Shown here in pieces: positions 1 to 16,528 of a stretch of DNA of 64,000 nucleotides; the first letter of the stretch is position 1; each line of letters starts with the position of its first letter. This DNA is from an archaeon (GTDB lineage: Archaea > Asgardarchaeota > Thorarchaeia > Thorarchaeales > Thorarchaeaceae). Made by a program: the position numbers and the translations under genes. The notes below the pieces were generated by a model, which did no database searches, was not told the DNA's origin, and saw only the letters and a program-made list of their open reading frames with translations. Location of the stretch: the NCBI GenBank assembly GCA_024276825.1, contig JAJRWI010000077.1, forward strand, positions 14,502 through 78,501, written 5' to 3'.

Positions 1-1
1 A

Positions 2-2779: not shown

Positions 2780-2821
2780 ACAGGCTCACTCTTATCCCCA
2801 TTTTCTTATGGAGGCAATGAT

Positions 2822-5800
2822 ATGCTAACGATGCGGAGAAAGATACTACTTCTGTCATTTGTTCTCGTTTTCTTGTTGATTCCAGGATCCAACAATGCTA
2901 TCTTTGATACAGTCAGACAAGACCTTGCAGTGACGAATCACTCCACAATATCAGCAGATATTGAGGAGTCGACGCCTTGGTGGAACACAACATTCCATTA
3001 TAGAATGCATGTAAATCTCACCGACACGAACTCTACCACTCGTGTTGATGTTCCTACTCACGTGTGGCTGACCTTTGAGAACAATACCTGTTACAAGTAT
3101 TCCATCCGTGTTGTTGACAGTAACAATGTCGAGGTCCCATCTCAAGTATACAACTACACATATTGGGAAAACCCCAACTATGTGAAGAGTGCCACAGTCT
3201 TCTGGTACGCCAATATCAGCGCTGACAGCACTTCAGTCTACTGGGTCTATTTTTCAGAACTAACAACAATTGAACAGACAAACTATGACTCAGTCGTCTG
3301 GTTTGCTCGAACTACGGGGGCTCTCTCTGGAAAGTTCGATGTAAATTATTGGAGCTTTCGTGGGGAGTGGTACAATGTCACCATGTACAATGCAGCCGGT
3401 GGAAAGATCACTAATGGTGCCCACAAGAAGGCTGATGGAACTTGGGACTGGAACTGGGGCACCAATCGTGGAAGCATGCACTGGAATCCTGATGGTCTTG
3501 GAGGGCAGGCGACCTCTGCAACTCCTCCCATCTCAGGCACAACTTTTGTAAACATCAATGGTCCCCTCTTCATTAATTATACTACCCAGCTTCCATTTGG
3601 ATCTTATGCAAAATTGAATGTGACCTATACATTCTATAAATGGGGCTGGATCACTAGAATATACATCAAATACACTGCTTCTACTGGTGGTTCAGGGCGT
3701 ACTGATGAATGGGTGTTCTACCCTTACTTGACTATTGAGGGAATTGAGGTGGCCCCTGATGGAACCCAGACCTATTACAGTAACTGGGCCCCAAGTTCAA
3801 ACAAGGGTTTACCTGCAGGCTTTGGCTGGTGGAACAACAACGGCATTTCTCATGGCACTGTCAGAATCTTGCATGAGGCCTACAACATGCCAGCAGGTCA
3901 TGAGGATGACTTCAATAACTACTATTACAGATGGTGGGATACAAGCTCATATGAATTCTGGGACACATATCATCCAAGTGTGACTGTTCAGGCAGGTACT
4001 GTTCTTAAGGAAGAATGTGCTTTTGCAGTCTGGAACGGTGCAGAGGGCGAGGATGGCTACATGAGAGTGTTCAACGCCACTTCCCGATATCTGCCCATAT
4101 TTCGAGAAATAAGCAATGTGTCATCCTATTCATTCAGAATCAATGTGAAGGATCTTGGTGGAAACAATATCGAGGGAGCAAATGTCACGCTTCTCAATCC
4201 CATTACTGGTGCAAGACTGTACAAGCCAACTGGTGCACCCTATACCGATCTCACGGACTCAGATGGAAACGTCACCTTCATTGGTCTTCTCAATCAGACA
4301 TACCGAATCGATGTCTGGATTGATACAACAACATGGCTTACTCCTGAAGCTGGTGCTACAGGAATGAACGTGACCTGGAGCGGCACAGCTGTGGCCGATG
4401 GCCCATTTACACCAGTTTCAATCACGTTGGACCTCGCATCAATCACAATTCATCTGGATGATCTCGCTGGTGACCCCTTGGGCACAGTTGGCGCAGAAAC
4501 AGTCAAAGTCTGGATATACAATGCCAGCGATCCTTCAAGGGCGAACTGGAAGTACATGGACTATGAGACCACAGACTCATCTGGCGATCTCACATTCTAT
4601 AGACTGCCTAAATGCGATTGGTTGTTCAACTTCACCTATAGCAACACCGATACTGGTCATATATACACAAAAGCGGACTTTGGTCTTTACGTGTCGCATA
4701 ACATTGATGAGAGTCTGATAACTGATGATCTCACACGAAGCTGGGTGCTACCTCTCACAACCATTGACTTCTATGTGGAGGCTTATGATGGACAACCTGT
4801 AGAGAATACATATGTCAGAATCTCAAAAGCAGGCACAGCAGATCCCATAGCAACAGGAGTTACGGACTCCTATAACATCACCCATATGACAGATGCCAAT
4901 GGAAATGTCACCTTCTACCGAGTACTAAAGGGCAACTGGACAGTCGTTGTCTACAGAACTGATGACTATGGCCAGACTGCTTACAATACAAGTGAATATG
5001 TCTATGACACAACAGGTTATGCTTACAAGAAGATATCTATTCCTCTAACTTGGCTACGAATACGAGTTGTGGACAATAATAACAACCGAGTAACTGGCGC
5101 AAAGATCGATCTCTATGCTAATGGCGTTTTTCTTGTGACTGCCTATTCAGACAGTGCGGGTGAGTACAATTTTCATTGGATCAAAGCCAATGATACTTCA
5201 ATTGGATGGAGTTATACTGTTACTATTAGTAAGAACACAGCCCAAACTAGTGATTCGGTTTATGCTTCATATGACTATCTCCATTGGAACACTATTACAT
5301 TAACACCACCTGCTTATACTCAGAAATATACCGAACTCAACTGCACAGCCTCCGTATATTCATGGTATTATGCAGATAATGGGACATTCCAAATTGGCTG
5401 GTTCAATCGTACCAGCACAAGCCCATCAACGTGGGAAGACCAATCTTTGAATCAATCTGAGTACTTTGCAGGAACCATGAATTTCACAATATCTCATAAT
5501 GGTGTTGTGATTGGGTTCGGTGTGTGGAATTCTACCCACCATCTATATATCTCGCATTATACATCCGATGGGATATATTTCACAATTGCAATTGATACAT
5601 TACTTTTCAAAATGAATGCGAGCAATATACCCTATATTATAACAATAAAGGCTGAAACTCCCAATTATGATGCTCCTGAAGAATATACTGTGACCGTTGT
5701 TATCTCAGTGGCAAGTACTACTAGAAATGGAGCCACTTCATTGGAGGCATATTACCTTGATGGCTTTGCTGCATTATATTCATTGACAACAAATCCCTCT

Positions 5801-8800
5801 GGACGCGACGCTCTCAATCTGACTGATCTCGACTTTACGAACTATACAATTTATGACTCCGATAACAATATTATTTCAACAGGCAATCTCACCCATCTTG
5901 GCTCCGGCATCTATCGGTTCTCGGACTCCAACCTCAATACATCAGATGTTGGAAGCTATGAGATTGTAATCTGGCTTCATAAACTGAACTATATGAACCA
6001 TACTTTCACTTTAACAGTCACAATCAATGCAGTGCTAACTGAACTTGTCTGGACCACCGACCCATCTGATTATACTTGGGGCACAGGAATAAGTTTTGTA
6101 ACCCTTGAGTTTCGAGATACTGTTCATGGGGGAACGATATCTGGTGTGTCAGTGACGTATTCATGGATAGACGTTTCATCAGGGACAACTGTTCTCGTAG
6201 AGTCATCAAGTTCTCTGACATACTTGTATGCAAACAATATTGTTGCAAATGGCACATATCGAATCTATGCCTATGCCACCAAACAAAATTATCTCGCTGC
6301 TGATAGTACATCTGTTTCTTTTCTGGTTTCTCCCGCAAGTACAAGCATCTCGCTGAAATCATCCGACACAATAACTATTGAATGGGGCAGCGAATATGCA
6401 GAGTTTGACTTTGACTATGTTCAGGCACCTTTCACCGTAGCGGGCGCCTCTGTGATTAATATTGATTGGACTGGAGAATACAGTCTTGTTGATTATGACA
6501 ATGGAACTTACACATTGAGAATGCTTGCAGTTCAAGAAGCAGCAAACTATACAGTCACTTTCACGATGTGGATAGAAAATCGTACCAAGGCCTCAGAGAC
6601 CGTATATGTCAATGTGCTGATCCCATTGGATGTTTCATCATCTGAAGGGAAATCACTACAAGACCCAATTCAGGAGTACTGGACACGTTCATTCATGCTA
6701 CAAGTAATCGCTGGAGATCAATCCAATCAATCAGAATATGTTTCTGGAGTAATTGTCACTTACAACTTTCCAGCGGGTGGTATCTCTGGAACTTTCACAG
6801 AGAACGCCACTGGTCAATACTATTGGCTGGAGTTTCCAGCATCACTTGCTCCTGGTCCTGGAGTGTACGAGATTCAAGTGGAAGCAGCAAGAATTGGGTG
6901 CACAGGAACTTCTCTGTCAATTTACATTGAAGTTCTTCCAACTCCAACAAGGATAACCGCTCAGAATCAATTATTGACAGTCTACTATGCAGACTCTTAC
7001 CTACTCAATTTCAGCTGGTCAACAACTATTGATACTCCTGTTGGCATTGAAGGGCCAGATAATGTGCACATTGAACTATGGAAGAGCACGAGTCTTGTCA
7101 ATGGAAGTATTGCTGGTATTGTTGAGCTGGGCAATGGTGACTATCAATTCTTGATGGACACACGAATGCTTGGAATGACCGCAGACTCTCCTCTATTTCC
7201 AACTAGTTATTACTTTGTCATCACAATGAACAAACTTGGATACGAGGAGCCTCTTGCCGTCACAATAATCATTCTTGTCTTGCAGACTCCTACAGAGATG
7301 ACAGCAGATCCAATAGAGCCAGTCATCTGGTCGGAAGATTTCACAGTCAGAGTTCACATTCGCGATATAGTTCACAATGAGTATGTCTGGACTGATGCTT
7401 CAGTATACTTCATTTATGAGGACATTAATGTTACAATGACCTCTCTTGGTAATGGGACATTTGTACTGACTGGCGATTCTGCTGACTATTTCTCATCGTC
7501 AGACTTGCCTCACTCAGTTACTATCATCTATACATTACCAAACTACGTTGATGGACAGATTCAGGTGGAAGTGCAGATCAATCCAAAACCTGCCTATATT
7601 CTTAATCTACCGCTAGATGATACTTATGACTGGACTGACACAATCGATCTTACTCTGGATATTATTATCAATGGCACAACCACAAGACTTGAGGTTGACA
7701 GTTGCTACTTCTATTGGAAAGAGTACCCTGCAATAAATGGAACACTCGCATATGATTCAATATTCAACAGATATCTTGGTACGGTGAACACAAAACTAGT
7801 TCCAGCAGGTAACCTGACACTTGTGCTTGCAGCAGTCAAGGGCAACTACACAATTCCTGAGATTGAAATCTCACTGGAAATTAAGCCATTGCCTGCCAAG
7901 CTTAATTCAGTATCTGGTGATCTGCTAACTGTGATATATGGTCTTGATCAGTCAGCTCAGATTATTATGGCATATACACACGGAGACAATGATACTGTTC
8001 TGGAAGGTGCGAGAATCACCTTCATTTGGAATGGCCTTGAGCGTGAGGCTCTGTGGAGTGATGGTCAATACATCTTCGAGTTTAATCCATCATCTGACAC
8101 TTCACTTGAAGTTCCTGGTACTCTGGAACTTGTGTTTACTGCAGCACTTCAGAACTACACAACTGAAACTACCACAGTTCTAATGAGACTCGCTGCAAGA
8201 ACCGAAATTGTTGGCGGTCCCTATCGAGTCGAGTCTGAACAATATCTCAATCTTATCTTCAAGTATTGGGATGTTGTCAATGACAGACCCGTTGGGTCTG
8301 CAGCCACGGTTCAATACCAGATTGGAAACAACACCCCTGTCACGGTGACTGCAGAGCAGTTTGATGGAACTCAGTACATAATTCGTATACTTGCCGATGA
8401 CATCGGTGAAGTGAGCCCCGATCCCTATCAGATCCGGATATTTGCAAGCGCACCTGGCTATCAGAATTGGACCGTATTGGATGATCCTCAATACATCACA
8501 GTCTATGTAGACCCACCTACTGTCCAAATACCATTAATAGGCCTATCAATTGAGAGGTCTACGCTGTTTTTGGTTGGCGGAGTCAGTCTGCTGTTCATTC
8601 TTGGTATACTAGGTGCAATCGCAGTTCAACGCATGCGTATACCTTACCAGATTAAGCAGATTAACAAAGCACTGAAAGCTATTGAGAATGACAAGAAGGC
8701 CCGTGTTGAGGGCATCAAATCCATGGGCACTATCATCTGGGAGCTTCTTGAGCCTGGTCTAGCCACACTCAATATCACCCCTGATGTTCTTGGCGCAATC

Positions 8801-9379
8801 TTGGAAGCTCCCGTAGAAGAAGAGATTGCACTTGAAACTGAGGAACTCCTTGATGAGCTTGAGGCGCTTGAAGATATTGAGGCCGAACCAACTCGGGAAG
8901 ATGCTGCTTATGAGGAAGAATTGGTCGCCGAACTGGAAGAAGCAGTTGAAACCGCCGCGCAACCCGTAGAAGTCACAGGGCTGGTGGAAGAGCAGCCCGA
9001 AACCGGAAAGGCAGAGTTGATGCCAGAGGCTGAAGAAGAAACAACAGAAGAATCGGGGCCTGAAGAGGAACTCGAAGAAGATGAAGAAACTGACACTGGA
9101 GAACCTATTACCGAACCAGAACCCCCAGCTGATGAAGAGCCTAGCATGCCAGATGAAGAACCCATTGAAGATCTAAAGGACGACACAATCGAGCCTGACA
9201 TGGACGAAACTGAAGAGTCAGCGGGAAACATCGACCGGCCAGAAGAAGATGAATCTGTTGAATCCAATGATGAGGCGCCTGAGCCAGAATCGCAACTAGA
9301 TGAAGCCCCCTCTGATGACTCTGATGAATCATCTGGATCAACTGATCTTGTTGATGGAAATGGTGAAGGTGATGAATGA
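2822..9379 (+). CDS. Giant (2185 aa) secreted, membrane-anchored surface glycoprotein-like protein. It has a signal peptide, a DUF2341-like N-terminal region, multiple carboxypeptidase-regulatory/Ig-like beta-sandwich domains, a C-terminal TM (~8563-8628), a conserved juxtamembrane motif and a polyacidic tail.
   Basis: ATG at 2822 is preceded by GGAGG. The signal peptide is MLTMRRKILLLSFVLVFLLIPGSNNA. There are dozens of N-x-S/T sequons. The TM stretch is LFLVGGVSLLFILGILGAIAV, then QRMRIPYQIKQINKALKAIENDKKARVEGIKSMG, then a D/E/P-rich tail of about 290 aa. Confidence 0.85.
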   Translation: MLTMRRKILLLSFVLVFLLIPGSNNAIFDTVRQDLAVTNHSTISADIEESTPWWNTTFHYRMHVNLTDTNSTTRVDVPTHVWLTFENNTCYKYSIRVVDSNNVEVPSQVYNYTYWENPNYVKSATVFWYANISADSTSVYWVYFSELTTIEQTNYDSVVWFARTTGALSGKFDVNYWSFRGEWYNVTMYNAAGGKITNGAHKKADGTWDWNWGTNRGSMHWNPDGLGGQATSATPPISGTTFVNINGPLFINYTTQLPFGSYAKLNVTYTFYKWGWITRIYIKYTASTGGSGRTDEWVFYPYLTIEGIEVAPDGTQTYYSNWAPSSNKGLPAGFGWWNNNGISHGTVRILHEAYNMPAGHEDDFNNYYYRWWDTSSYEFWDTYHPSVTVQAGTVLKEECAFAVWNGAEGEDGYMRVFNATSRYLPIFREISNVSSYSFRINVKDLGGNNIEGANVTLLNPITGARLYKPTGAPYTDLTDSDGNVTFIGLLNQTYRIDVWIDTTTWLTPEAGATGMNVTWSGTAVADGPFTPVSITLDLASITIHLDDLAGDPLGTVGAETVKVWIYNASDPSRANWKYMDYETTDSSGDLTFYRLPKCDWLFNFTYSNTDTGHIYTKADFGLYVSHNIDESLITDDLTRSWVLPLTTIDFYVEAYDGQPVENTYVRISKAGTADPIATGVTDSYNITHMTDANGNVTFYRVLKGNWTVVVYRTDDYGQTAYNTSEYVYDTTGYAYKKISIPLTWLRIRVVDNNNNRVTGAKIDLYANGVFLVTAYSDSAGEYNFHWIKANDTSIGWSYTVTISKNTAQTSDSVYASYDYLHWNTITLTPPAYTQKYTELNCTASVYSWYYADNGTFQIGWFNRTSTSPSTWEDQSLNQSEYFAGTMNFTISHNGVVIGFGVWNSTHHLYISHYTSDGIYFTIAIDTLLFKMNASNIPYIITIKAETPNYDAPEEYTVTVVISVASTTRNGATSLEAYYLDGFAALYSLTTNPSGRDALNLTDLDFTNYTIYDSDNNIISTGNLTHLGSGIYRFSDSNLNTSDVGSYEIVIWLHKLNYMNHTFTLTVTINAVLTELVWTTDPSDYTWGTGISFVTLEFRDTVHGGTISGVSVTYSWIDVSSGTTVLVESSSSLTYLYANNIVANGTYRIYAYATKQNYLAADSTSVSFLVSPASTSISLKSSDTITIEWGSEYAEFDFDYVQAPFTVAGASVINIDWTGEYSLVDYDNGTYTLRMLAVQEAANYTVTFTMWIENRTKASETVYVNVLIPLDVSSSEGKSLQDPIQEYWTRSFMLQVIAGDQSNQSEYVSGVIVTYNFPAGGISGTFTENATGQYYWLEFPASLAPGPGVYEIQVEAARIGCTGTSLSIYIEVLPTPTRITAQNQLLTVYYADSYLLNFSWSTTIDTPVGIEGPDNVHIELWKSTSLVNGSIAGIVELGNGDYQFLMDTRMLGMTADSPLFPTSYYFVITMNKLGYEEPLAVTIIILVLQTPTEMTADPIEPVIWSEDFTVRVHIRDIVHNEYVWTDASVYFIYEDINVTMTSLGNGTFVLTGDSADYFSSSDLPHSVTIIYTLPNYVDGQIQVEVQINPKPAYILNLPLDDTYDWTDTIDLTLDIIINGTTTRLEVDSCYFYWKEYPAINGTLAYDSIFNRYLGTVNTKLVPAGNLTLVLAAVKGNYTIPEIEISLEIKPLPAKLNSVSGDLLTVIYGLDQSAQIIMAYTHGDNDTVLEGARITFIWNGLEREALWSDGQYIFEFNPSSDTSLEVPGTLELVFTAALQNYTTETTTVLMRLAARTEIVGGPYRVESEQYLNLIFKYWDVVNDRPVGSAATVQYQIGNNTPVTVTAEQFDGTQYIIRILADDIGEVSPDPYQIRIFASAPGYQNWTVLDDPQYITVYVDPPTVQIPLIGLSIERSTLFLVGGVSLLFILGILGAIAVQRMRIPYQIKQINKALKAIENDKKARVEGIKSMGTIIWELLEPGLATLNITPDVLGAILEAPVEEEIALETEELLDELEALEDIEAEPTREDAAYEEELVAELEEAVETAAQPVEVTGLVEEQPETGKAELMPEAEEETTEESGPEEELEEDEETDTGEPITEPEPPADEEPSMPDEEPIEDLKDDTIEPDMDETEESAGNIDRPEEDESVESNDEAPEPESQLDEAPSDDSDESSGSTDLVDGNGEGDE

Positions 9380-9498
9380 TTGAGAAAAGGCGATAGGTCA
9401 ACCATAGACAGGCAATGCTCATATTCATTCTGGCATCTGTATATCATGAAGCCATATCGCCAGTTCCCAACCTGCTGGACATTGGACGGTGATCAAAT

Positions 9499-10380
9499 AT
9501 GATTAGAGAGATTCATGTCTTTAAGGATGGCGAGACTCTGTTCGAGGATGTCATTGTGCCCAACAAAGACCTAGACACAAAAGCAGTAATGATGCTTGTT
9601 TCCTCATCCTGCAAGAAACTGCAAGAGTGGAAAATTGACAGCATGGAGATTGAACGCTTTCGATATGTATACATGAACAGTCATGATACACAATTCATCA
9701 TCACTATGGACCGCCAGGCCTCATTAATGAAGGTTCACGAGGCAATGACATCTGCTGTATCAAAATTCATGACTGCCTTTGAGAGTGTTCTGGAAACTGA
9801 TGAATGGAAATCAACTGACTTTTCACCCTTCAAGGATGGCTTTAGAAGGATTGTCAGTAGGATTCCAGTGAAAGTCTGTCTTGCAGGTCATGGTGGTACC
9901 GGTAAAACAACTCTTCTTGAGCTTGCCACAATGCCATCGCAAGGGCCACCTCAAGAGTATGTGCCAACTTTCTTTGGCGATAAGGCTCTATTAAAGGCAG
10001 ACTTTGATCCATATGTGTTCAGCATGTTTGACCTTGGTGGCCAAGACCGTTTCGTACAAGAATGGGGCAAGATAATTCGGGCTGGTTCTCTTGTTGTGAT
10101 TGTGACAGACTCTACTACTGAGAACTTGGCATGGACCAAGAGAGTCGCTTACCCCGTTCTAAAGAACGAGTTACCTTATGCACGGGCAATAGCAATAGCA
10201 AACAAGCAGGATCTTCCTGGAGCTCTATCGCCTCAAGAGGTGAGCAGGAAGCTGGGAGTACCGGCGTACGGCATGCAGGCAAATAAGATGGACTTTAGAG
10301 ATCGATGGTTGAAACTGCTAAGAGGGTTGGCTTTTGAAACCCTTGATTTTGCAGTAGTAGGAGAAATAGAGGTGGAATAA
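9499..10380 (+). CDS. Roadblock/LC7-like N-terminal domain fused to an Arf-like (Arf/Arl-type) small GTPase.
   Basis: Residues 1-110 predict an alpha-beta-beta-alpha-beta-alpha roadblock-like fold. The GTPase motifs are G1 GHGGTGKTT, a switch I Thr in YVPTFFG, G3 FDLGGQDRF and G4 IANKQDLPGA. The DxGGQ + NKQDLP.A pair is the Arf-family signature. Confidence 0.8.
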   Translation: MIREIHVFKDGETLFEDVIVPNKDLDTKAVMMLVSSSCKKLQEWKIDSMEIERFRYVYMNSHDTQFIITMDRQASLMKVHEAMTSAVSKFMTAFESVLETDEWKSTDFSPFKDGFRRIVSRIPVKVCLAGHGGTGKTTLLELATMPSQGPPQEYVPTFFGDKALLKADFDPYVFSMFDLGGQDRFVQEWGKIIRAGSLVVIVTDSTTENLAWTKRVAYPVLKNELPYARAIAIANKQDLPGALSPQEVSRKLGVPAYGMQANKMDFRDRWLKLLRGLAFETLDFAVVGEIEVE

Positions 10381-10381
10381 G

Positions 10382-10942
10382 ATGTCAGATCCAAGTGAAA
10401 CCACAAAGAGTATACTTAGTGAGGAGGAGCGAAAGAGACTCATCACTGAAATTGGGAATATAAAGAATATTCTTGATAGCTTCAAATATGGCCTGAACTT
10501 CGAGCAATTCGCTGATGCTTTGTTCAAGACCATTGACCGCCAGACACTGGCAATCAACAAGCTAGAGGCGCAGATGAGAGAGATCATTGAGAGAATGAAG
10601 AATCTTGAGAAACGATTCGATGAAGGTATTAGAGTCACAGTTTCTGGAGCTGTGAGTGCCGAAGGTGGTATTGAACCAACAGAAGTGATAATTGGCGACA
10701 AGGCAGAAGAAAAGGCAAAAGAAGAACCAACTACTCCTCCTGATATTGAAGTCATCAAAAAAGAGATAGAAGAGCTGAAAATCAAAATTGCCAAGCTGTT
10801 CGAGAAGGAGAATGAACTCACTGAGATGGCCATGAATGACCCGGCAGCAGCCGATGAGTATGAAGAGAAAGCAAGAGTTGCTCGTGAAATGAGAGTTGAA
10901 CTGGAGGCCAAGAAAAAAGAATTGGAGGACAAACTGCAATAG
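10382..10942 (+). CDS. Coiled-coil protein (186 aa). Its start is 1 nt after the GTPase stop.
   Basis: Charged heptad-rich sequence with a K/E-rich C-terminal half. Translationally coupled to the upstream GTPase gene. Confidence 0.6.
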   Translation: MSDPSETTKSILSEEERKRLITEIGNIKNILDSFKYGLNFEQFADALFKTIDRQTLAINKLEAQMREIIERMKNLEKRFDEGIRVTVSGAVSAEGGIEPTEVIIGDKAEEKAKEEPTTPPDIEVIKKEIEELKIKIAKLFEKENELTEMAMNDPAAADEYEEKARVAREMRVELEAKKKELEDKLQ

Positions 10943-10957
10943 CAATTGAGGTGATCA

Positions 10958-11305
10958 ATGAAAATGGGAATTTTCGATAAATGGAGAAGGAAGAAGCACA
11001 GAGCTGAAATGAGTGGTACTAAAGTGCCTGCACCACGACCAATTTCTGCAAGGGAAATGAGTTCTGAAGTGCAGGCGGAGATAGTCAGTCTTGTTGCTGA
11101 ATATGAGCAATTGTACAAGCGACGATCAGAACTTCAAGCTGAAAGAAGCGAATTGACTGAGCGCCTGGACCGCGGTGAATTGACCGCAATTGAATTCAGG
11201 AAACTTCTGATGGAGAAGATTCAGGAAGCCGCACAAGTGGCAGAGAGCTTAAAAGCAACAGCTGCTCGGTTGACAGAACTCGGCTATCGTGGAGTACTTC
11301 GCTGA
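10958..11305 (+). CDS. Small coiled-coil protein (115 aa).
   Basis: A GAGGTGA Shine-Dalgarno sits 6 nt upstream. Basic N-terminus followed by a predicted long helix. Same operon orientation. Confidence 0.55.
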   Translation: MKMGIFDKWRRKKHRAEMSGTKVPAPRPISAREMSSEVQAEIVSLVAEYEQLYKRRSELQAERSELTERLDRGELTAIEFRKLLMEKIQEAAQVAESLKATAARLTELGYRGVLR

Positions 11306-12695
11306 GGTGGGAACGCTGTCCAGGCGTGAAGATGAAGAACCCGAGACCCCCTCTGATATTGAGGAAAGGACTCGTCAGCTAATGGAGAAAGCATTAGGCA
11401 CCTCTGAATCGACAGATGTGCATGATGAAGGAGCCCCATTAGCACCAAGCACATCTCTCGCGGGACAGATATCTGAAACTTTTTTCAGGATTCAGATTCG
11501 CATGGAAGATCTCATCTCATCGATTGAAGACTCGATTAGGTCTATAGAACCTGAGATCAACGAGTCCCTAAAGAGCACGATTGAATCCATTTCTGAGCGG
11601 TTAAGGCGTGAGGCAGGTCTTGGTGTGTTCACAAGCAAGACAGTGAAAATTGTAAGAGAAGAGCTGGAAAAGGCCCTCTCCGTAGAGGCAGTTCATAAGG
11701 GCCTATTTGCTGCTCTTGCTGAAAGCCGTGAACAGGTGCGTGACATAATTCAAAAAACCAGCCGCGGTTCAATTCGTGAAATTGACAGACGCATTAGCAC
11801 ATTACAATCGAAAATTGTTCATGTTTATGCCAGACTGAACGAGCGAGAGCAAGAGATTGACAAGTTAAGATCAACAATAACCGAGCTTCGCAGCAAGATT
11901 TCCGAGATGAATGACATAATCGCACGTAAGGACAAAGAGATGGCTGAATATGTTAAACGACTTGACTCATTATTAGCAACCAGAGACCAATTGGCTGCAA
12001 AACTTGTCGAACAAGACTCCACCATATCCTCATTAACTGGACAGCTCAAGCAAGCAAGCTCTGAGATATTGCAATTGAAGACAATGATTGAGAAGATGGA
12101 CTCTGCTGAGGAGCTTGTTGTCGAATATGAAAACATGACAAAGACACTATCTGAATTGCAGGGACGCTTGGCTGAACTTCAGGAAACCCTCAAGCAGAAA
12201 GACATGACTATTGACGAGCTAAGCGAAACAATTAAGGAGTTCAATGCCGAGAGATCTGAACTTCAGTCACGTGTGCAAGAATTGGATGAAGAGGTCTCAC
12301 AGCTTCGTGGTGCCAAAGAGGGCTTGCTGTTAGAGATCGAAACCCTCAGGCGAAAGATTGCTGAACTTCAGGCACGTTGGGAACTATTATATCAAGTGGC
12401 TGAGGAAAGCCCTGCTTTCAGAGCATATTTTGTGGTCGCTGATAAGGAACACTGGTTTCCCCTATCTCACCTGTCTTCAGCACTGGGCATTCCTGTTGTG
12501 CGACTGAAACAACAATTAGAACGATTCATAGAAGTTGGTCTCTTAGAGATTGATGGCGACCGCATCCGCCCGAAAAAGCTCACTGAGGTTGTCAAAGAGG
12601 TCTTGGACCAGGATGAAAGGGTCCTTTCAGAGGCGAGGGGGGACTTGGGCATGGGGGATGACACCAATAATGAACAATCAGACAACGATACATGA
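11289..12695 (+). CDS. Long coiled-coil protein (~460 aa) with a C-terminal winged-helix-like domain ending in ...GLLEIDGDRIRPKK. The start is uncertain (GTG at 11289 or GTG at 11307).
   Basis: An acidic N-terminus is followed by roughly 300 aa of heptad-rich sequence (LQSKIVHVYARLNEREQEIDKLRSTITELRSKISEMNDIIARKDKEMAEY...). The C-terminal segment looks like a winged helix. It overlaps the previous gene by 17 nt, or starts 1 nt after its TGA stop if GTG 11307 is used. Confidence 0.6.
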   Translation: MEYFAEVGTLSRREDEEPETPSDIEERTRQLMEKALGTSESTDVHDEGAPLAPSTSLAGQISETFFRIQIRMEDLISSIEDSIRSIEPEINESLKSTIESISERLRREAGLGVFTSKTVKIVREELEKALSVEAVHKGLFAALAESREQVRDIIQKTSRGSIREIDRRISTLQSKIVHVYARLNEREQEIDKLRSTITELRSKISEMNDIIARKDKEMAEYVKRLDSLLATRDQLAAKLVEQDSTISSLTGQLKQASSEILQLKTMIEKMDSAEELVVEYENMTKTLSELQGRLAELQETLKQKDMTIDELSETIKEFNAERSELQSRVQELDEEVSQLRGAKEGLLLEIETLRRKIAELQARWELLYQVAEESPAFRAYFVVADKEHWFPLSHLSSALGIPVVRLKQQLERFIEVGLLEIDGDRIRPKKLTEVVKEVLDQDERVLSEARGDLGMGDDTNNEQSDNDT

Positions 12696-12720
12696 ATAAC
12701 TAACTGGTAGGTGCATTGAA

Positions 12721-13062
12721 TTGGCAAGATCACTTGACGAAGTAATGAGGTTCCTAGAAAACTATACACTGGCTTGGCATCATTGGCTAATGATTCTAGC
12801 TTTGTTGAAATTGGGGGGTGCAGCGACCAAGGCGCAGATCTTCCCGGTGTACAAGAAGGAGGGCTTTTCTCCTCATGCAATTGAGGATGTGTTTCGCAGA
12901 GATTTGATAGAGCTTGGCGAAGCAATAGATATTGATGGCGACATAGACACTCTTCAAGACTCAACAATGATTTATCTTAGTGATAATCCCAAGTTTCAAC
13001 GGTTCATAAAGAAACATCTGAAGTCGGTGGTCCGAACTCTAAAGATGCAGAGACCGAACTGA
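12721..13062 (+). CDS. Small winged-helix-like protein (113 aa), paralogous to the C-terminal module of the 11289-12695 protein.
   Basis: It shares the motif ...LIELGEAIDIDGDIDTL with ...EVGLLEIDGDRIRP in the preceding protein. TTG start at 12721, or ATG at 12745. Confidence 0.45.
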   Translation: MARSLDEVMRFLENYTLAWHHWLMILALLKLGGAATKAQIFPVYKKEGFSPHAIEDVFRRDLIELGEAIDIDGDIDTLQDSTMIYLSDNPKFQRFIKKHLKSVVRTLKMQRPN

Positions 13063-13108
13063 GTCCTGTTCGTAAATCTTTTGAACACATCTATCCTGAT
13101 ACGCATGG

Positions 13109-13447
13109 TTGAGCATATTGAGCGTTAGAGCATCAGTTTGCAGTTCATGTGATCGGGCCATTGTGCCCCCTCGAAAAATATGTCCCTACTGCGGGCCTTC
13201 TGTTGAACCAATGAGAACAATAACCCTGGATGGTAAAGGTAAAGTCCTTAGTCATACTACTCTACATATGCCACCCGCTGGCTTTAAGGCCCCACTCCAT
13301 CTTGCTCTTGTTGTTCTAGAACACAATGCAATTGTCTTATGCCATGCTCTAAACGAGTCTGATGCCATGATTAAGATTGGTGACCGCGTTCAAGTTACAA
13401 CAGGCGAAAAGGAACTTCTCTACTATACGAAGATCAGACCTCTTTGA
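13109..13447 (+). CDS. DUF35-family Zn-ribbon + OB-fold protein, the short form of the thiolase/acyl-CoA-enzyme partner.
   Basis: Contains C-x2-C ... C-x2-C (CSSCD...CPYCG) followed by an OB-fold-like beta region. Paralogs at 39219-39875 and 59489-59887 sit next to thiolases. Confidence 0.6.
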   Translation: MSILSVRASVCSSCDRAIVPPRKICPYCGPSVEPMRTITLDGKGKVLSHTTLHMPPAGFKAPLHLALVVLEHNAIVLCHALNESDAMIKIGDRVQVTTGEKELLYYTKIRPL

Positions 13448-13509
13448 ATCGCAACTATAAGCAACTGTTTCATGAGCTACTAATTTAAGGTAGAATTTCT
13501 GAGGATGAG

Positions 13510-14694
13510 TTGGTGTCAGATCAAATGGACTACTTGTCAACGGTTCTTTGGACGGATGAAGAGTTAGAGTTTAGAAATGAAGTTCGTGCCTTCTGCGAGA
13601 AAGAGATTGCTCCGATTGCTGACGAACTTGATAAAGGCCCCTATCCCCGTGAACTGATCCGCAAGATTGGACAGGCTGGATATATGGGGGTTCATCACTC
13701 AAAAGAGGCAGGTGGCTCTCAGAAAGGCCTCTCCTATGAGATTATTGTGGCTGAAGAGATATCTGCCGTGAATCCCGGACTGGACATGGCCAGAATGGCA
13801 TCCACAACTCTCTATGGTATGCCAATAAGCAAGTTCGGGACCGAGGAGCAGAAAAAGAAATACCTTCTTCCCATCGTGAACGGAGAAAAGATAGGGTGTA
13901 TTGGCATCACCGAGCCAGATGTTGGTTCGGACACCGCTGGAATGAAGACCCGTGCTGAGAAGGATGGCGATGAATGGGTCATCAATGGAGAGAAACGGTT
14001 TATCACAAATGGCAGTCAGGCTGATTACATGTGCTGCTTTGCTATCACTGATCCTACGGTGAAATCGAAGCAGGGGATGACCGCATTCATTGTGGATACA
14101 AAGACTGATGGGTTCAGTGTGGTCAAGGATCATGACCTTATGGGTATGAAGTCCGCAAGGGTTTCATGGCTGAAACTTGAGAATGTCAGGGTGCCACCTG
14201 GAATGGTCTTGGGCGAGCCTGGTCAGGGGTTTCAAATCCTCATGGATGAACTTGATAGTGAGAGGACGGCAATTGCCGCCGAGGCTATTGGATATGGCCG
14301 CACACCATTTGAAGTTGCTGTAAAGTATTCAAATGAACGGGTTCAATTTGGAAGACCCATAAGAGCGTTTGAGGGTGTCAGTTTCAAGATTGCTGATATG
14401 TACATGAAGCTTGAAGCTGCTCGCGCACTGACCCTAACTGCCGCAAGAATGTATGATAAGGGATTGAAGATCACCAAACAGGCTTCTATTGCCAAACTCT
14501 ATGCCACCGAGGCTGCCATTCAGATCACCAATGATGCTCTTCAAGTACTTGGAGGTATGGGCTACACCACAGAATATCCCGTTGAACGCTTTCTAAGGGA
14601 TGCCCGCCTAATGACAATTGGTGGTGGGACCGCTGAGATTTTGCGGTTCTTGATTCAGAGAGAGATCTTCAAGGAATTCTTCCCTAAAAAATAG
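13510..14694 (+). CDS. Acyl-CoA dehydrogenase.
   Basis: Typical ACAD length and motifs (GITEPDVGSD, FITNG, ...GGMGYTTEYPVERFLRDARLMTIGGGTAEI). The likely true start is the ATG at 13525 (MDYLSTV...). Confidence 0.85.
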   Translation: MVSDQMDYLSTVLWTDEELEFRNEVRAFCEKEIAPIADELDKGPYPRELIRKIGQAGYMGVHHSKEAGGSQKGLSYEIIVAEEISAVNPGLDMARMASTTLYGMPISKFGTEEQKKKYLLPIVNGEKIGCIGITEPDVGSDTAGMKTRAEKDGDEWVINGEKRFITNGSQADYMCCFAITDPTVKSKQGMTAFIVDTKTDGFSVVKDHDLMGMKSARVSWLKLENVRVPPGMVLGEPGQGFQILMDELDSERTAIAAEAIGYGRTPFEVAVKYSNERVQFGRPIRAFEGVSFKIADMYMKLEAARALTLTAARMYDKGLKITKQASIAKLYATEAAIQITNDALQVLGGMGYTTEYPVERFLRDARLMTIGGGTAEILRFLIQREIFKEFFPKK

Positions 14695-14725: not shown

Positions 14726-16528
14726 TTAGTCTATTGAGAAAGCTATTATTCTATATACATCTCCTACAATCTGGATTGTAGCTGTAAACGAGTCTCCCAC
14801 GCTAGCATTTAGCAGCTCATACCAGTCATTCACATCCATCCAGGCTTGAGCTCCCTCTATCCATTCATAGGTCGAATTATCTGTGCGGATGACGATGTGA
14901 GTGTTTCCATCTGACACATAGGATGCTTTGTTCAGAATTGTTGCATTCAATTGAATTGTATCTGTTGGTTCTTCCACTTCAATACCAAGCGCATTTCTTA
15001 CTTCTTGGATGTATGCCTCACGTACAGCCTGAACAAGACTTGCACCCACAAGGTTTCCCTGAGCCTGTAGAGCTGCATTAATGGTCACATCCTTTGCATC
15101 TGCAATGCCTAACGAATAGAGTCGAATGTCTGTGATGTACCACTCCTCGGTGTCTGAGTTATATTGTGTGTTCCACCAGTAGATTGGGCAATACCATGCC
15201 ATACGCGTGTATGTCGAATTGATCTGCACTGGATATATCAATGGCATGGCTCCAAAATAGCTGCCCTCAACAGGATCTGGATATTCCTTGATCACCTGAT
15301 TGATAGCAGCCTCTCCACTTGCATAGCCCAGATCGCTGAGGTCGTGGAAATAGACCCCATCTTTCGTTCCTCTTAGCATTCCACTTAGAGTGAGACTCGA
15401 AGCGCCAGGCGGATGCACTGCTATCATCGCCTCCACACGATTTGTGTCAGGGTTGACGATGTATCTTGTGTCCTCTGTCATTATCAATCGATCATTTGAG
15501 GGAGGAATCATCCAGAGGAATCCACCTGCAAACAGGTCAAAACCATCATCGCGGCGGTATCCGCCCCATCGATTGACCTGGCGCTCAAGCCATTCCTCGC
15601 TATATGCCTGAGTGATCCAGTTCGGGGTTTCTTCAATTGTGGCATAGGTCCTTATAGTACCATTTTGGCAGTACACCTTGGGACCAATAGGTCTCTCTAC
15701 AAAGTCCCAGCCAAGAACTGTTCTTGTTTGCACATACACAAGATTGCCTATAGGGTCCCATGTTGGGTATGCATACTCATAGGCGCTTGTCATGTCTTCA
15801 AGATAATTGCCAAACTGGATGTTCTTATCCCACCAGAGCCCTTCACCCACAGGTATCTGAATGTCGGTGATCACTTCAACCTGAGTCGGATCATTGGCAT
15901 CAACCACAATGAGTGCTTTGATGAAGTTCTCTGAGAGTACATTTGTTGAAACCACTACGCAGACCCATACTAATCGCCCATTTCGTGTTGTAATATGTGC
16001 TGCTGCAATATCGATATTGGACCCAATACTGGCAAAATGGCTTCTAGCAACAAACATGGCATACTCGCTGGTCACCAGCCTGACCATGTTGTCTGGAATT
16101 GGCGTGTTGAATAATGGATCGTCAGTTTGAATCACAAATGAATCAAAGGTTTCAGCGTTTGATAGATCGGATGTCCATGTTATAAGGCCCGAGAGTGTCG
16201 GCATAACAAGGATGATTAAGAGTCCAATGCACATGGCTGGTGTGCGAATTCCCTGCCTGATACTATCAAGGTCGTGTGGTCTGATGCCACCCCCGAATAG
16301 TAATAGCAGACCAAAGCTTGTGATAAGTGAGATTATTGCCCATGGCAGCACCTGCATTGTAAAAATACAGATAAACAACCATGTTGCAGTTCCCCAAACA
16401 AGTCTTAATGGCAACCACTTGAACAGTCTTTTGAACTTGAACATCTCTGTATTGAAAGGAATGGGTATTGCGAAAAATACCAGGGTAACTAGTAGGAACA
16501 GTATCACATTCAATCCTATGGTCTCCAC
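14726..16528 (-). CDS. Hypothetical membrane protein with 4-5 N-terminal TM helices and a large (~430 aa) extracytoplasmic domain.
   Basis: The N-terminus is hydrophobic and the remainder is hydrophilic with NxS/T sequons. No recognisable catalytic motif. Confidence 0.5.
   Translation of the reverse strand: METIGLNVILFLLVTLVFFAIPIPFNTEMFKFKRLFKWLPLRLVWGTATWLFICIFTMQVLPWAIISLITSFGLLLLFGGGIRPHDLDSIRQGIRTPAMCIGLLIILVMPTLSGLITWTSDLSNAETFDSFVIQTDDPLFNTPIPDNMVRLVTSEYAMFVARSHFASIGSNIDIAAAHITTRNGRLVWVCVVVSTNVLSENFIKALIVVDANDPTQVEVITDIQIPVGEGLWWDKNIQFGNYLEDMTSAYEYAYPTWDPIGNLVYVQTRTVLGWDFVERPIGPKVYCQNGTIRTYATIEETPNWITQAYSEEWLERQVNRWGGYRRDDGFDLFAGGFLWMIPPSNDRLIMTEDTRYIVNPDTNRVEAMIAVHPPGASSLTLSGMLRGTKDGVYFHDLSDLGYASGEAAINQVIKEYPDPVEGSYFGAMPLIYPVQINSTYTRMAWYCPIYWWNTQYNSDTEEWYITDIRLYSLGIADAKDVTINAALQAQGNLVGASLVQAVREAYIQEVRNALGIEVEEPTDTIQLNATILNKASYVSDGNTHIVIRTDNSTYEWIEGAQAWMDVNDWYELLNASVGDSFTATIQIVGDVYRIIAFSID

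Follow-up and report, generated by a model that had tools for sequence, protein, structure and literature searches.

The stretch of DNA analysed here (64 000 nt of a Thorarchaeota genome, hereafter the window) contains, at positions 9499–13062, five ORFs that the window's ORF list places close together on the + strand. These specify, in order, a GTPase with a longin domain (9499–10380), a 186 aa coiled-coil protein (cc186, 10382–10942), a small 115 aa protein (cc115, 10958–11305), a 468 aa protein with a long coiled coil (cc468, 11289–12695) and a 113 aa winged-helix protein (wh113, 12721–13062). The successive genes are separated by 1 nt, 15 nt, a 17 nt overlap and 25 nt; the single strand and the 1, 15 and 25 nt gaps given in an earlier note on this DNA are thus correct, whilst the junction it left as 'an overlap or 1 nt' is the 17 nt overlap. 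Shine–Dalgarno-like motifs (GGTGAT, GAGGTGG, GAGGTGAT and TAGGTG) lie 5–9 nt 5′ of the starts. A terminator-like hairpin with a T-rich run after it (13055–13082, + strand) overlaps the wh113 stop codon and possibly marks the end of the operon, this call being a consensus match of a kind no commoner in the region than in shuffled sequence. A scan for sigma-70 promoters, using a model that is uninformative for archaea, gave matches no more frequently than in shuffles, and no TATA box was callable upstream, where the intergenic DNA is too poorly conserved.

Two genes for giant surface proteins, also on the + strand, adjoin the cluster upstream, in agreement with the earlier description of the locus as lying directly downstream of receptor-like proteins. 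The first is represented by its C-terminal part (1–2779), its reading frame being open from nt 2 and continuing past the left edge of the window; it has a TM segment, a juxtamembrane block from approximately nt 1958 (RRMRIPYQIKQINKALKAIENQKRAEVEGIKSMGQVIAELLAPGLAELN) and then a long acidic tail. The second (2185 aa, 2822–9379) contains many NxS/T sequons and one C-terminal TM segment, and a motif scan located the same juxtamembrane block from nt 8639, with ∼200 aa of acidic cytoplasmic tail after it. The ectodomains of these surface proteins are only ∼30 % identical, whereas the juxtamembrane block of ∼50 aa is near-invariant. Homologues carrying this block were found upstream of the GTPase gene in 20 other loci, Atabeyarchaeia included.

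The GTPase is a single chain of 293 aa in which a longin domain (residues 1–121; 9499–9861) precedes an Arf-like G domain (9862–10380). The N-terminal domain has the longin topology, beta-beta-alpha-beta-beta-beta-alpha-alpha, and superposes on known longins, with those of VAMP7 and Sec22 scoring above SRX. For the G domain, the protein scored 47.7 bits against Pfam Arf (PF00025; cut-off 22.3), and among solved structures it comes closest to Arf1 and Asgard GTP-binding proteins (E-value about 1 × 10−10). The motifs are G1 GHGGTGKT, a switch I PT, G3 DLGGQ and G4 NKQD; DLGGQDRF and NKQD are invariant and conform to the DxGGQ and NKxD of Arf proteins. G1 is likewise invariant, in 17 orthologues, and lacks the Leu-Asp at positions 2–3 listed for the Arf family (GLDxxGKT; PMC11914678). 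The Arf N-terminal amphipathic helix, which in that family is coupled to an interswitch toggle, is absent, the 121-residue longin domain standing in its place, and no hydrophobic segment stands out on inspection of the sequence. Identity among Thorarchaeota is 74–91 %. The nearest sequence relatives of the G domain are the Asgard proteins AArf, ArfR and ArfL, the characterized members of which use an N-terminal amphipathic helix and have been studied alone with no partner operon described. Longin N-termini have been mentioned in passing for some Asgard Arfs (PMC11914678).

The earlier note counted three coiled-coil proteins, and two of these have a strong heptad signal. In cc186, heptad windows (residues 47–85 and 121–152) comprise 38 % of residues, compared with 2 % in shuffles; the protein consists of a conserved N-terminal block (EEERKRLI..LDSFKYGLNFE.FAD), then an acidic linker and, at the C-terminus, a coiled coil, and profile searches returned no family match. 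In cc468, 53 % of residues fall within heptad-rich windows, compared with 3 % in shuffles, and the coiled coil is followed by a winged helix (12378–12590, + strand) and an acidic tail. The winged helix gave profile matches to archaeal ArsR/Lrp-type wHTH structures (E-value 0.003–0.02), so that the description of this protein as mostly coiled coil ending in a winged helix is borne out. Its start is ambiguous, being either the GTG at 11289 or a position near 11316, where orthologues begin and where a CTG is found here. Short proteins with a coiled coil and a winged helix (cc-wH proteins) in Atabeyarchaeia and Baldrarchaeia are homologues of the C-terminal module (hhalign 98.6 % for Baldrarchaeia). 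The third protein, cc115, gave no heptad signal by the same crude measure. Its sole profile match in the PDB is to a generic antiparallel coiled coil (E-value 0.0055, weaker than the usual threshold of 0.001), and it probably folds as a helical hairpin. The listed ORF start at 10958 is possible; the ATG at 10964 is most likely the true one, as favoured by Shine–Dalgarno spacing, which gives a gene at 10964–11305. From this codon the protein begins MG[LI][FL]D in 39 of 39 orthologues, with the M and G invariant, usually followed by WRRKK; a second conserved segment at the C-terminus reads LGYRGVL or LGHP. The hydrophobic moment of the N-terminus is no better than in shuffles, of which 0.25–0.28 reach the same value, and we therefore do not call it an amphipathic helix. 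No relation between cc115 and cc186 was detected. The coiled-coil proteins gave only generic matches, far below threshold, to the coiled-coil arms of SMC, Rad50, LmuB and JetC, and matched no SMC-accessory, chemotaxis or defence family; PADLOC likewise returned only coiled-coil noise and the locus is therefore not a defence system.

The last gene, wh113, belongs to an orphan family for which a profile search of PDB sequences returned nothing. Its topology, H1-S1-H2-H3-S2-wing-S3, is that of a winged helix. Helix 1 contains a WHHW motif that is invariant, the C-terminal helix is basic and amphipathic, and the predicted recognition helix, HAIEDVFRRDLIELGEAI, has an acidic to neutral charge. The proposal that cc468 and wh113 carry a duplicated winged-helix module marked by 'IDGD' did not hold: hhalign gave a probability of 0.8 %, BLASTP aligned nothing, and the motif is the beta-turn of the wing, replaced in orthologues by EVEGG, ELEGD, EIQDD or EMEND. 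The two winged helices share a fold, and homology between them is undetectable. A sixth conserved member, LW (∼385 aa), is encoded just upstream of the window and contains tandem winged helices. The second of these matches Pfam HTH_20/HTH_5 above threshold, and the first is suggested by weak matches together with a reading of the sequence. Judged by eye, the N-terminal domain of LW appears longin-like; hhalign found no relation between it and the longin domain of the GTPase, none of 14 LW sequences matched the NPR2 or NPR3 profiles, and no catalytic arginine is evident among the invariant positions of this domain. An exact-sequence search for the contig that holds the window, which would show LW upstream, found no record. 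A metagenome scan for LW found only Thorarchaeota-level relatives, and comparisons of LW with wh113 (not significant) and with the Baldrarchaeia protein X303 (no relation detected) were likewise negative.

About 45 Thorarchaeota loci keep the gene order, a conservation far beyond chance. Homologues are not scattered, and this synteny strongly supports the earlier claims of an operon and of partners that are dedicated to the GTPase and inherited with it. About 26 loci have the full order GTPase–cc186–cc115–cc468–wh113, and about 20 more have a reduced order, LW–GTPase–cc115–wh113, from which both long coiled coils are absent. The minimal conserved set in Thorarchaeota comprises LW, the GTPase and wh113, along with cc115 in all but two loci (L064 and L065), where it is missing entirely. 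The accessory protein cc186 is confined to loci with surface-protein genes inserted between LW and the GTPase, and it and the inserted genes are both present or both absent with no exception; cc468 tracks the surface genes with one exception. In a neighbour-joining tree of the GTPase, a low-resolution tree of a very conserved protein, the reduced loci, in which the core module has no adjacent surface-protein gene, fall within the full ones at two or three separate positions. In Atabeyarchaeia the genes for LW and the longin-GTPase adjoin those for a cc115-like and a cc-wH protein, and in Baldrarchaeia LW and the longin-GTPase are accompanied by a cc-wH protein and a 180 aa coiled-coil protein, for which comparison with cc186 detected no relation; in both classes a large TM-anchored surface protein adjoins the module. 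One Baldrarchaeia locus (L044) has an extra member with sub-threshold matches to DUF742 (E-value 1.7 × 10−5) and NPR2 (E-value 0.018). Longin-Arf-like GTPases of Hodarchaeota and Promethearchaeota (31–33 % identity) are stand-alone genes in a different conserved context and therefore represent a different paralogue, and the Odinarchaeum homologue adjoins an ESCRT cluster without these partners. Synteny within Thorarchaeota also extends to metabolic genes downstream of the module, which encode a DUF35 protein and an acyl-CoA dehydrogenase. The searchable literature yielded no account of this operon.

We consider, with moderate confidence, that the locus encodes a membrane-proximal G-protein switch in which longin and winged-helix partners serve as regulators or scaffold of the GTPase. 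The five genes would be the window's part of a conserved Asgard G-protein module, with the 293 aa longin-Arf protein as the switch and LW, cc115 and wh113 as its fixed partners. We infer that these products would contact one another physically and bind the membrane, for which the hydrophobic and polybasic N-terminus of cc115 (MGLFDxWRRKK) makes it the best candidate to hold the complex. The longin and winged-helix partners would most likely set or read out the nucleotide state of the GTPase, by analogy with those systems whose roadblock or longin and HTH proteins, encoded next to a small GTPase, serve as its GAP and GEF. In this lineage the module appears to have gained cc186 and cc468, and with them a giant surface glycoprotein or two. 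The likely docking site is the cytoplasmic juxtamembrane block, which is near-invariant in these glycoproteins, and through it the module would link the surface proteins to the GTPase switch in the cytoplasm.

In its logic the module looks related to bacterial conservon and eukaryotic Rag/GATOR systems. Actinobacterial conservons (CvnA–D; MfpE–B) and this locus are both operons in which a Ras-superfamily GTPase is encoded with a membrane protein, with a member of the roadblock/longin superfamily and with a small protein of HTH or winged-helix type (PMC11343762, PMC13343842). Within conservons, MfpD (roadblock) is the GAP, MfpC (DUF742, HTH) the GEF, MfpB the GTPase and MfpE the membrane sensor (PMC11343762). 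The conservon GTPase, however, is MglA/Ras-like rather than Arf-like with a longin fused on, and here the membrane partner is a giant glycoprotein without a kinase domain and coiled-coil members are added. No window protein matches DUF742, Robl_LC7 or HATPase, wh113 and cc468 included, and the only sign of DUF742 is the sub-threshold one in the Baldrarchaeia accessory protein; the likeness is one of logic and the locus is not a conservon proper, in which a separate roadblock protein and a histidine-kinase-like membrane protein would accompany the DUF742 protein and the MglA/Ras-like GTPase. With Rag–Ragulator–GATOR1 (Nprl2/Nprl3) it shares a GTPase fused to a longin/roadblock-type domain. Ragulator likewise contains a small helical protein as anchor, LAMTOR1, with a membrane-binding N-terminus, and cc115 is its candidate counterpart. 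In NPR2 and NPR3, tandem wHTH domains come after a longin domain (PMC3521125), the arrangement that LW would have if the by-eye assignment of its N-terminal fold is correct. In contrast to Rag, the G domain here is Arf-like, the fused domain is an N-terminal longin rather than a C-terminal roadblock, nothing points to a GTPase heterodimer, LW has no NPR2 Pfam match, and the module would presumably act at the cell membrane, next to surface proteins. Taken further, the giant glycoproteins may be receptors or cargo whose juxtamembrane helix is read by the longin-Arf complex, with an NPRL-like regulator, an anchor and coiled-coil scaffolds; the whole would then be a prokaryotic plasma-membrane forerunner of Rag–Ragulator–GATOR, or of cargo-tail recognition by Arf and longin adaptors, an extension that we regard as speculative.

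Asgard archaea encode many small GTPases and longin/roadblock proteins, almost none of which has a known partner or context, and a pre-eukaryotic role for them as regulated switches is therefore hard to test. This locus gives one longin-Arf-like GTPase a defined and strongly conserved partner set, which includes candidate regulators (winged-helix and putative longin-type), a candidate membrane anchor and a candidate client in the membrane, whose cytoplasmic part bears an invariant motif. As the soluble components are all small and expressible, GAP/GEF activity, membrane recruitment and receptor coupling could be tested in vitro, with a bearing on the archaeal forebears of trafficking and signalling in eukaryotes.

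A different role would be tethering, in which the GTP-bound Arf-like protein recruits cc186 and cc468 to tether membranes or vesicles or to organize a submembrane skeleton. Both are true heptad coiled coils, are encoded right beside the GTPase and co-occur with membrane-anchored giant proteins, and the combination of a small GTPase, a roadblock-type regulator and long coiled coils recalls MglA/MglB with its effectors AglZ and FrzS or Arl with golgins. Nevertheless, we think this unlikely: the core does without both coiled coils in about 20 loci, only generic coiled-coil matches were found with no GRIP, GRAB or other Arf/Arl-effector domain, a separate MglB gene is lacking, and the GTPase has a longin domain instead of the Arf amphipathic helix. 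The anatomy of the locus does not favour a golgin/Arl or MglA-effector reading. Similarly improbable is a signalling route to DNA: cc468, LW and wh113 would bind it through their winged helices, and the GTPase would gate a membrane-associated transcription regulator or a chromosome–membrane tether. The C-terminus of cc468 and the second winged helix of LW do match DNA-binding wHTH domains of the ArsR/Lrp/TrmB type, and the C-terminal helix of wh113 is strongly basic; its predicted recognition helix, however, is not basic, the HTH protein of the closest operon precedent is a GEF rather than a DNA binder (PMC11343762), and the winged helices of NPR2/3 and ESCRT-II make protein contacts (PMC3521125).

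More doubtful still is that the longin-Arf chain acts as SR-alpha (SRX longin) and SR-beta (Arf-like GTPase) in cis, serving the insertion, sorting or turnover of the surface proteins, or, in a variant, that its longin recognizes the cargo tail in the manner of AP sigma. The same two domains are here fused in one chain, but VAMP7 and Sec22 longins outscore SRX, the GTPase has no evident TM anchor of the SR-beta kind, an SRP54-type NG domain is missing, the partners differ, and the core module is kept in loci with no adjacent surface gene. Finally, that these genes are mere neighbours without a common function is scarcely credible: synteny alone can be passive, as the downstream DUF35 and acyl-CoA dehydrogenase genes are syntenic too, but the spacing permits translational coupling, the set is kept in three Asgard classes although the surrounding genes are rearranged, and the accessory members come and go together.

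The five ORFs at 9499–13062 come from a Thorarchaeota (Asgard) genome, and Thorarchaeota is the label on almost every named homolog of the GTPase. They encode, all on the forward strand, a 293-aa protein with a longin domain fused ahead of an Arf-like GTPase domain (9499–10380), followed by four partners named by length and by coiled-coil (cc) or winged-helix (wh) label: cc186 (10382–10942), cc115 (10958 or 10964 to 11305), cc468 (11289–12695) and wh113 (12721–13062). The tight same-strand spacing claimed in the earlier note was borne out, with gaps of 1, 15 and 25 nt and one 17-nt overlap, an arrangement fit for translational coupling. Shine–Dalgarno-like motifs (GGTGAT, GAGGTGG, GAGGTGAT and TAGGTG) were found 5–9 nt ahead of the starts. 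For cc115, the spacing of this motif favours the second ATG (10964), in agreement with the MG[LI][FL]D that opens 39 of 39 orthologs. Where cc468 begins is ambiguous: the sole canonical candidate, GTG 11289, creates the 17-nt overlap with cc115; most orthologs have Met approximately nine codons downstream, where the window has CTG (11316), and a perfect GAGGTGG precedes this CTG, overlapping the cc115 stop codon (region 11289–11320). A terminator-like hairpin and T-run overlapping the wh113 stop codon gives a weak indication of the operon end, as such sites were no commoner here than in shuffled sequence.

The Pfam Arf match spans residues 124–255 of the GTPase protein (47.7 bits), and the closest solved sequences were Arf1 and two entries described as 'GTP-binding protein' (8oun and 8oum; E about 1e-10). 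The G3 (DLGGQ) and G4 (NKQD) motifs fit the Arf family, whereas G1 is GHGGTGKT rather than the Arf-specific GLD form (PMC11914678); judged by its motifs, the protein is thus Arf-like and not a canonical Arf. Whole-protein identity among Thorarchaeota species was 74–91 %, an unusual degree of constraint. One published sentence notes that certain Asgard Arf-like proteins have a longin N-terminus, in a paper that gives no partners for them (PMC11914678).

Among the three coiled-coil partners proposed in the earlier note, cc468 and cc186 retained this assignment: heptad-rich windows covered 53 % of the length of cc468 (3 % in shuffles), and two heptad segments made up 38 % of cc186 (2 % in shuffles). 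For cc115, no heptad signal was detected by the same crude measure and the sole structural hint was a generic antiparallel coiled coil (E 0.0055); it is accordingly regarded here as probably a helical hairpin rather than a coiled-coil protein. The winged-helix end proposed for cc468 was recovered, in that a profile built from its last 74 residues matched archaeal ArsR/Lrp-type wHTH structures (E 0.003–0.02). Its supposed duplication in wh113, based on a common 'IDGD' string, was not: the two winged helices had no detectable homology (hhalign 0.8 %; BLASTP), and 'IDGD' is a wing beta-turn whose string differs between orthologs. The C-terminal helix of wh113 is basic and amphipathic (muH 0.58, charge +7). 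ArsR-like winged helices could give the system a DNA-directed output, although we consider this unlikely.

A scan with each species represented by one genome yielded 42 loci, whose architectures were determined by tblastn of the window proteins and redetermined once metagenome loci had been added. The expected conservation of gene order in related genomes was found, in two main architectures: a full type (about 26 loci, including the window) comprising surface protein gene(s), GTPase, cc186, cc115, cc468 and wh113, and a reduced type (about 20 loci) comprising GTPase, cc115 and wh113. The set is co-inherited. One intermediate locus (L015) has cc468 with neither cc186 nor surface genes. Two metagenome loci (L064, 3910–5150; L065, 6892–8130) leave no space for cc115, which is therefore not strictly universal. 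In these, the GTPase and wh113 genes are accompanied by that of LW, an ∼385-aa protein (start MPEGLAVLKWDDELGPVV) recognised via the reduced loci; examples of its gene lie in L032 (7829–8995), L008 (466–1626), L040 (7878–8990) and L044 (5949–7004). LW has an N-terminal domain that by eye looks longin-like and two winged helices, the second matching HTH_20/HTH_5 above threshold. It was found in every locus with sufficient upstream DNA, always encoded together with the GTPase. Most reduced loci have 2–40 nt between the end of LW and the GTPase gene; in the full type, this junction is occupied by the inserted genes for the giant surface proteins. The LW of the window genome would be expected beyond the left edge, where the first ORF is truncated by the window start. 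The earlier note's reading of the coiled coils as tethering or cytoskeletal elements is improbable, being weakened by the position of the coiled-coil proteins outside the conserved core.

Thiolase and DUF35 genes are usually neighbouring partners. In reduced loci the LW–GTPase–cc115–wh113 cassette lies between a thiolase gene and DUF35/acyl-CoA dehydrogenase genes (in L032, flanking genes at 6544–7716 and 10744–12345, with thiolase on one side and a DUF35/ChsH2-type OB-fold protein and acyl-CoA dehydrogenase on the other). In the window, too, wh113 precedes these DUF35 and acyl-CoA dehydrogenase genes (13109–14694). Beyond them, a 600-aa multi-TM protein without a Pfam match (14726–16528, reverse strand) is syntenic 3' of the operon across almost all Thorarchaeota loci, and also in L037, from a divergent lineage (42–66 % identity). 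The GTPase of L037 is 57 % identical, and a 510-aa protein (11958–13490) with an LW-like N-terminus (MPAGIALCSWNEKEGL..) and no Pfam match for the remainder sits between cc468 and wh113 rather than upstream.

Upstream of the GTPase gene (1–9379) are two tandem, sequon-rich giant surface proteins, each with a single TM segment. Directly after it, both carry a common block (RRMRIPYQIKQINKALKAIEN..VEGIKSMG..I.ELL.PGLA.LN; starts at nt 1958 and 8639). This cytoplasmic juxtamembrane block of ∼50 aa (RRxRIPYQIKQINxALKxIE..IKTMG..ISELLAPGLAELD), followed by a long acidic low-complexity tail, is near-invariant in 18 other Thorarchaeota loci, with ectodomains only ∼30 % identical and diverging rapidly; the tail motif is, like the GTPase, unusually constrained. 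Variants were recognisable in Atabeyarchaeia and Baldrarchaeia (RTPVVLRIMGKVSKYVNKGR). Moreover, cc186 is present exactly in those loci with surface genes between LW and GTPase, and cc468 tracks them likewise with one exception. A neighbour-joining GTPase tree, of low resolution, had reduced loci nested among full loci at two or three places, which suggests that joint loss or gain happened more than once.

We propose that the longin and winged-helix proteins act on the GTPase as regulators or readers, that the hydrophobic-plus-polybasic N-terminus of cc115, and perhaps the C-terminal helix of wh113, would position the complex on the membrane or the acidic tails, and that cc186 and cc468 may scaffold a link to the juxtamembrane block. 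That the module serves the biogenesis or sorting of the giant proteins, in the manner of SR-alpha/SR-beta or of an adaptor, seems very doubtful. For regulation of the GTPase by its partners, the two best precedents by analogy are actinobacterial conservons, in which a roadblock protein is the GAP and an HTH-type DUF742 protein the GEF of the operon GTPase, accompanied by a membrane sensor (PMC11343762; PMC13343842), and Rag–Ragulator–GATOR1, in which a longin domain is joined to tandem wHTH domains in NPR2/3 (PMC3521125). LW resembles NPR2/NPR3 in architecture but had no profile match to them, and no window protein matched profiles placing it in either system; the proposal is that the module works in a similar way, not that it belongs to one of these systems. 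Published accounts mention Asgard GTPases with a fused longin domain and, in Thorarchaeota, longin proteins resembling NPRL2, and describe an ESCRT operon and a LAMTOR1-like/Rab-like/DENN operon; no description of the present operon or its surface-protein link was found in the open-access literature. We rate the locus as belonging among prokaryotic small-GTPase regulatory operons, and its naming of testable partners for a longin-Arf-like GTPase gives it real value in the study of eukaryogenesis.

Outside Thorarchaeota, two Atabeyarchaeia loci (L040 and L041; GTPase 39 % identical) have the order surface protein, LW, longin-GTPase, cc115-like protein and a short coiled-coil and winged-helix protein related to the cc468 C-terminus. 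In Baldrarchaeia (L044), a divergently oriented gene for a 1135-aa surface protein precedes LW, which is followed by the longin-GTPase, a 180-aa coiled-coil protein, a 303-aa protein and a 157-aa coiled-coil/winged-helix protein homologous to the cc468 C-terminal module (hhalign 98.6 %). The 303-aa protein showed winged-helix matches, sub-threshold matches to DUF742 (E 1.7e-5) and NPR2 (E 0.018) and, in its N-terminal part, a weak, non-significant match to Fuz_longin_1 (E 0.18). Partner genes were absent from the neighbourhoods of distant longin-Arf-like GTPases in Odin-, Hod- and Promethearchaeota. The module is therefore old in part of the Asgard radiation and not universal. At the Atabeyarchaeia-type loci a Rab/Ras-like GTPase gene is convergent to the operon (L040, 11101–11652, reverse strand; L041, 11001–11546, reverse strand), adjoined in L041 by a second longin-Arf-like GTPase of 338 aa with a C-terminal coiled-coil extension (11788–12804, forward strand). 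In Odinarchaeum yellowstonii (L043), a 291-aa longin-Arf-like GTPase (7001–7876; 31 % identical to the Atabeyarchaeia query) adjoins an ESCRT cluster (8584–14035) of two Snf7, Vps4, ESCRT-II, EAP30, Vps28 and an E2 enzyme.
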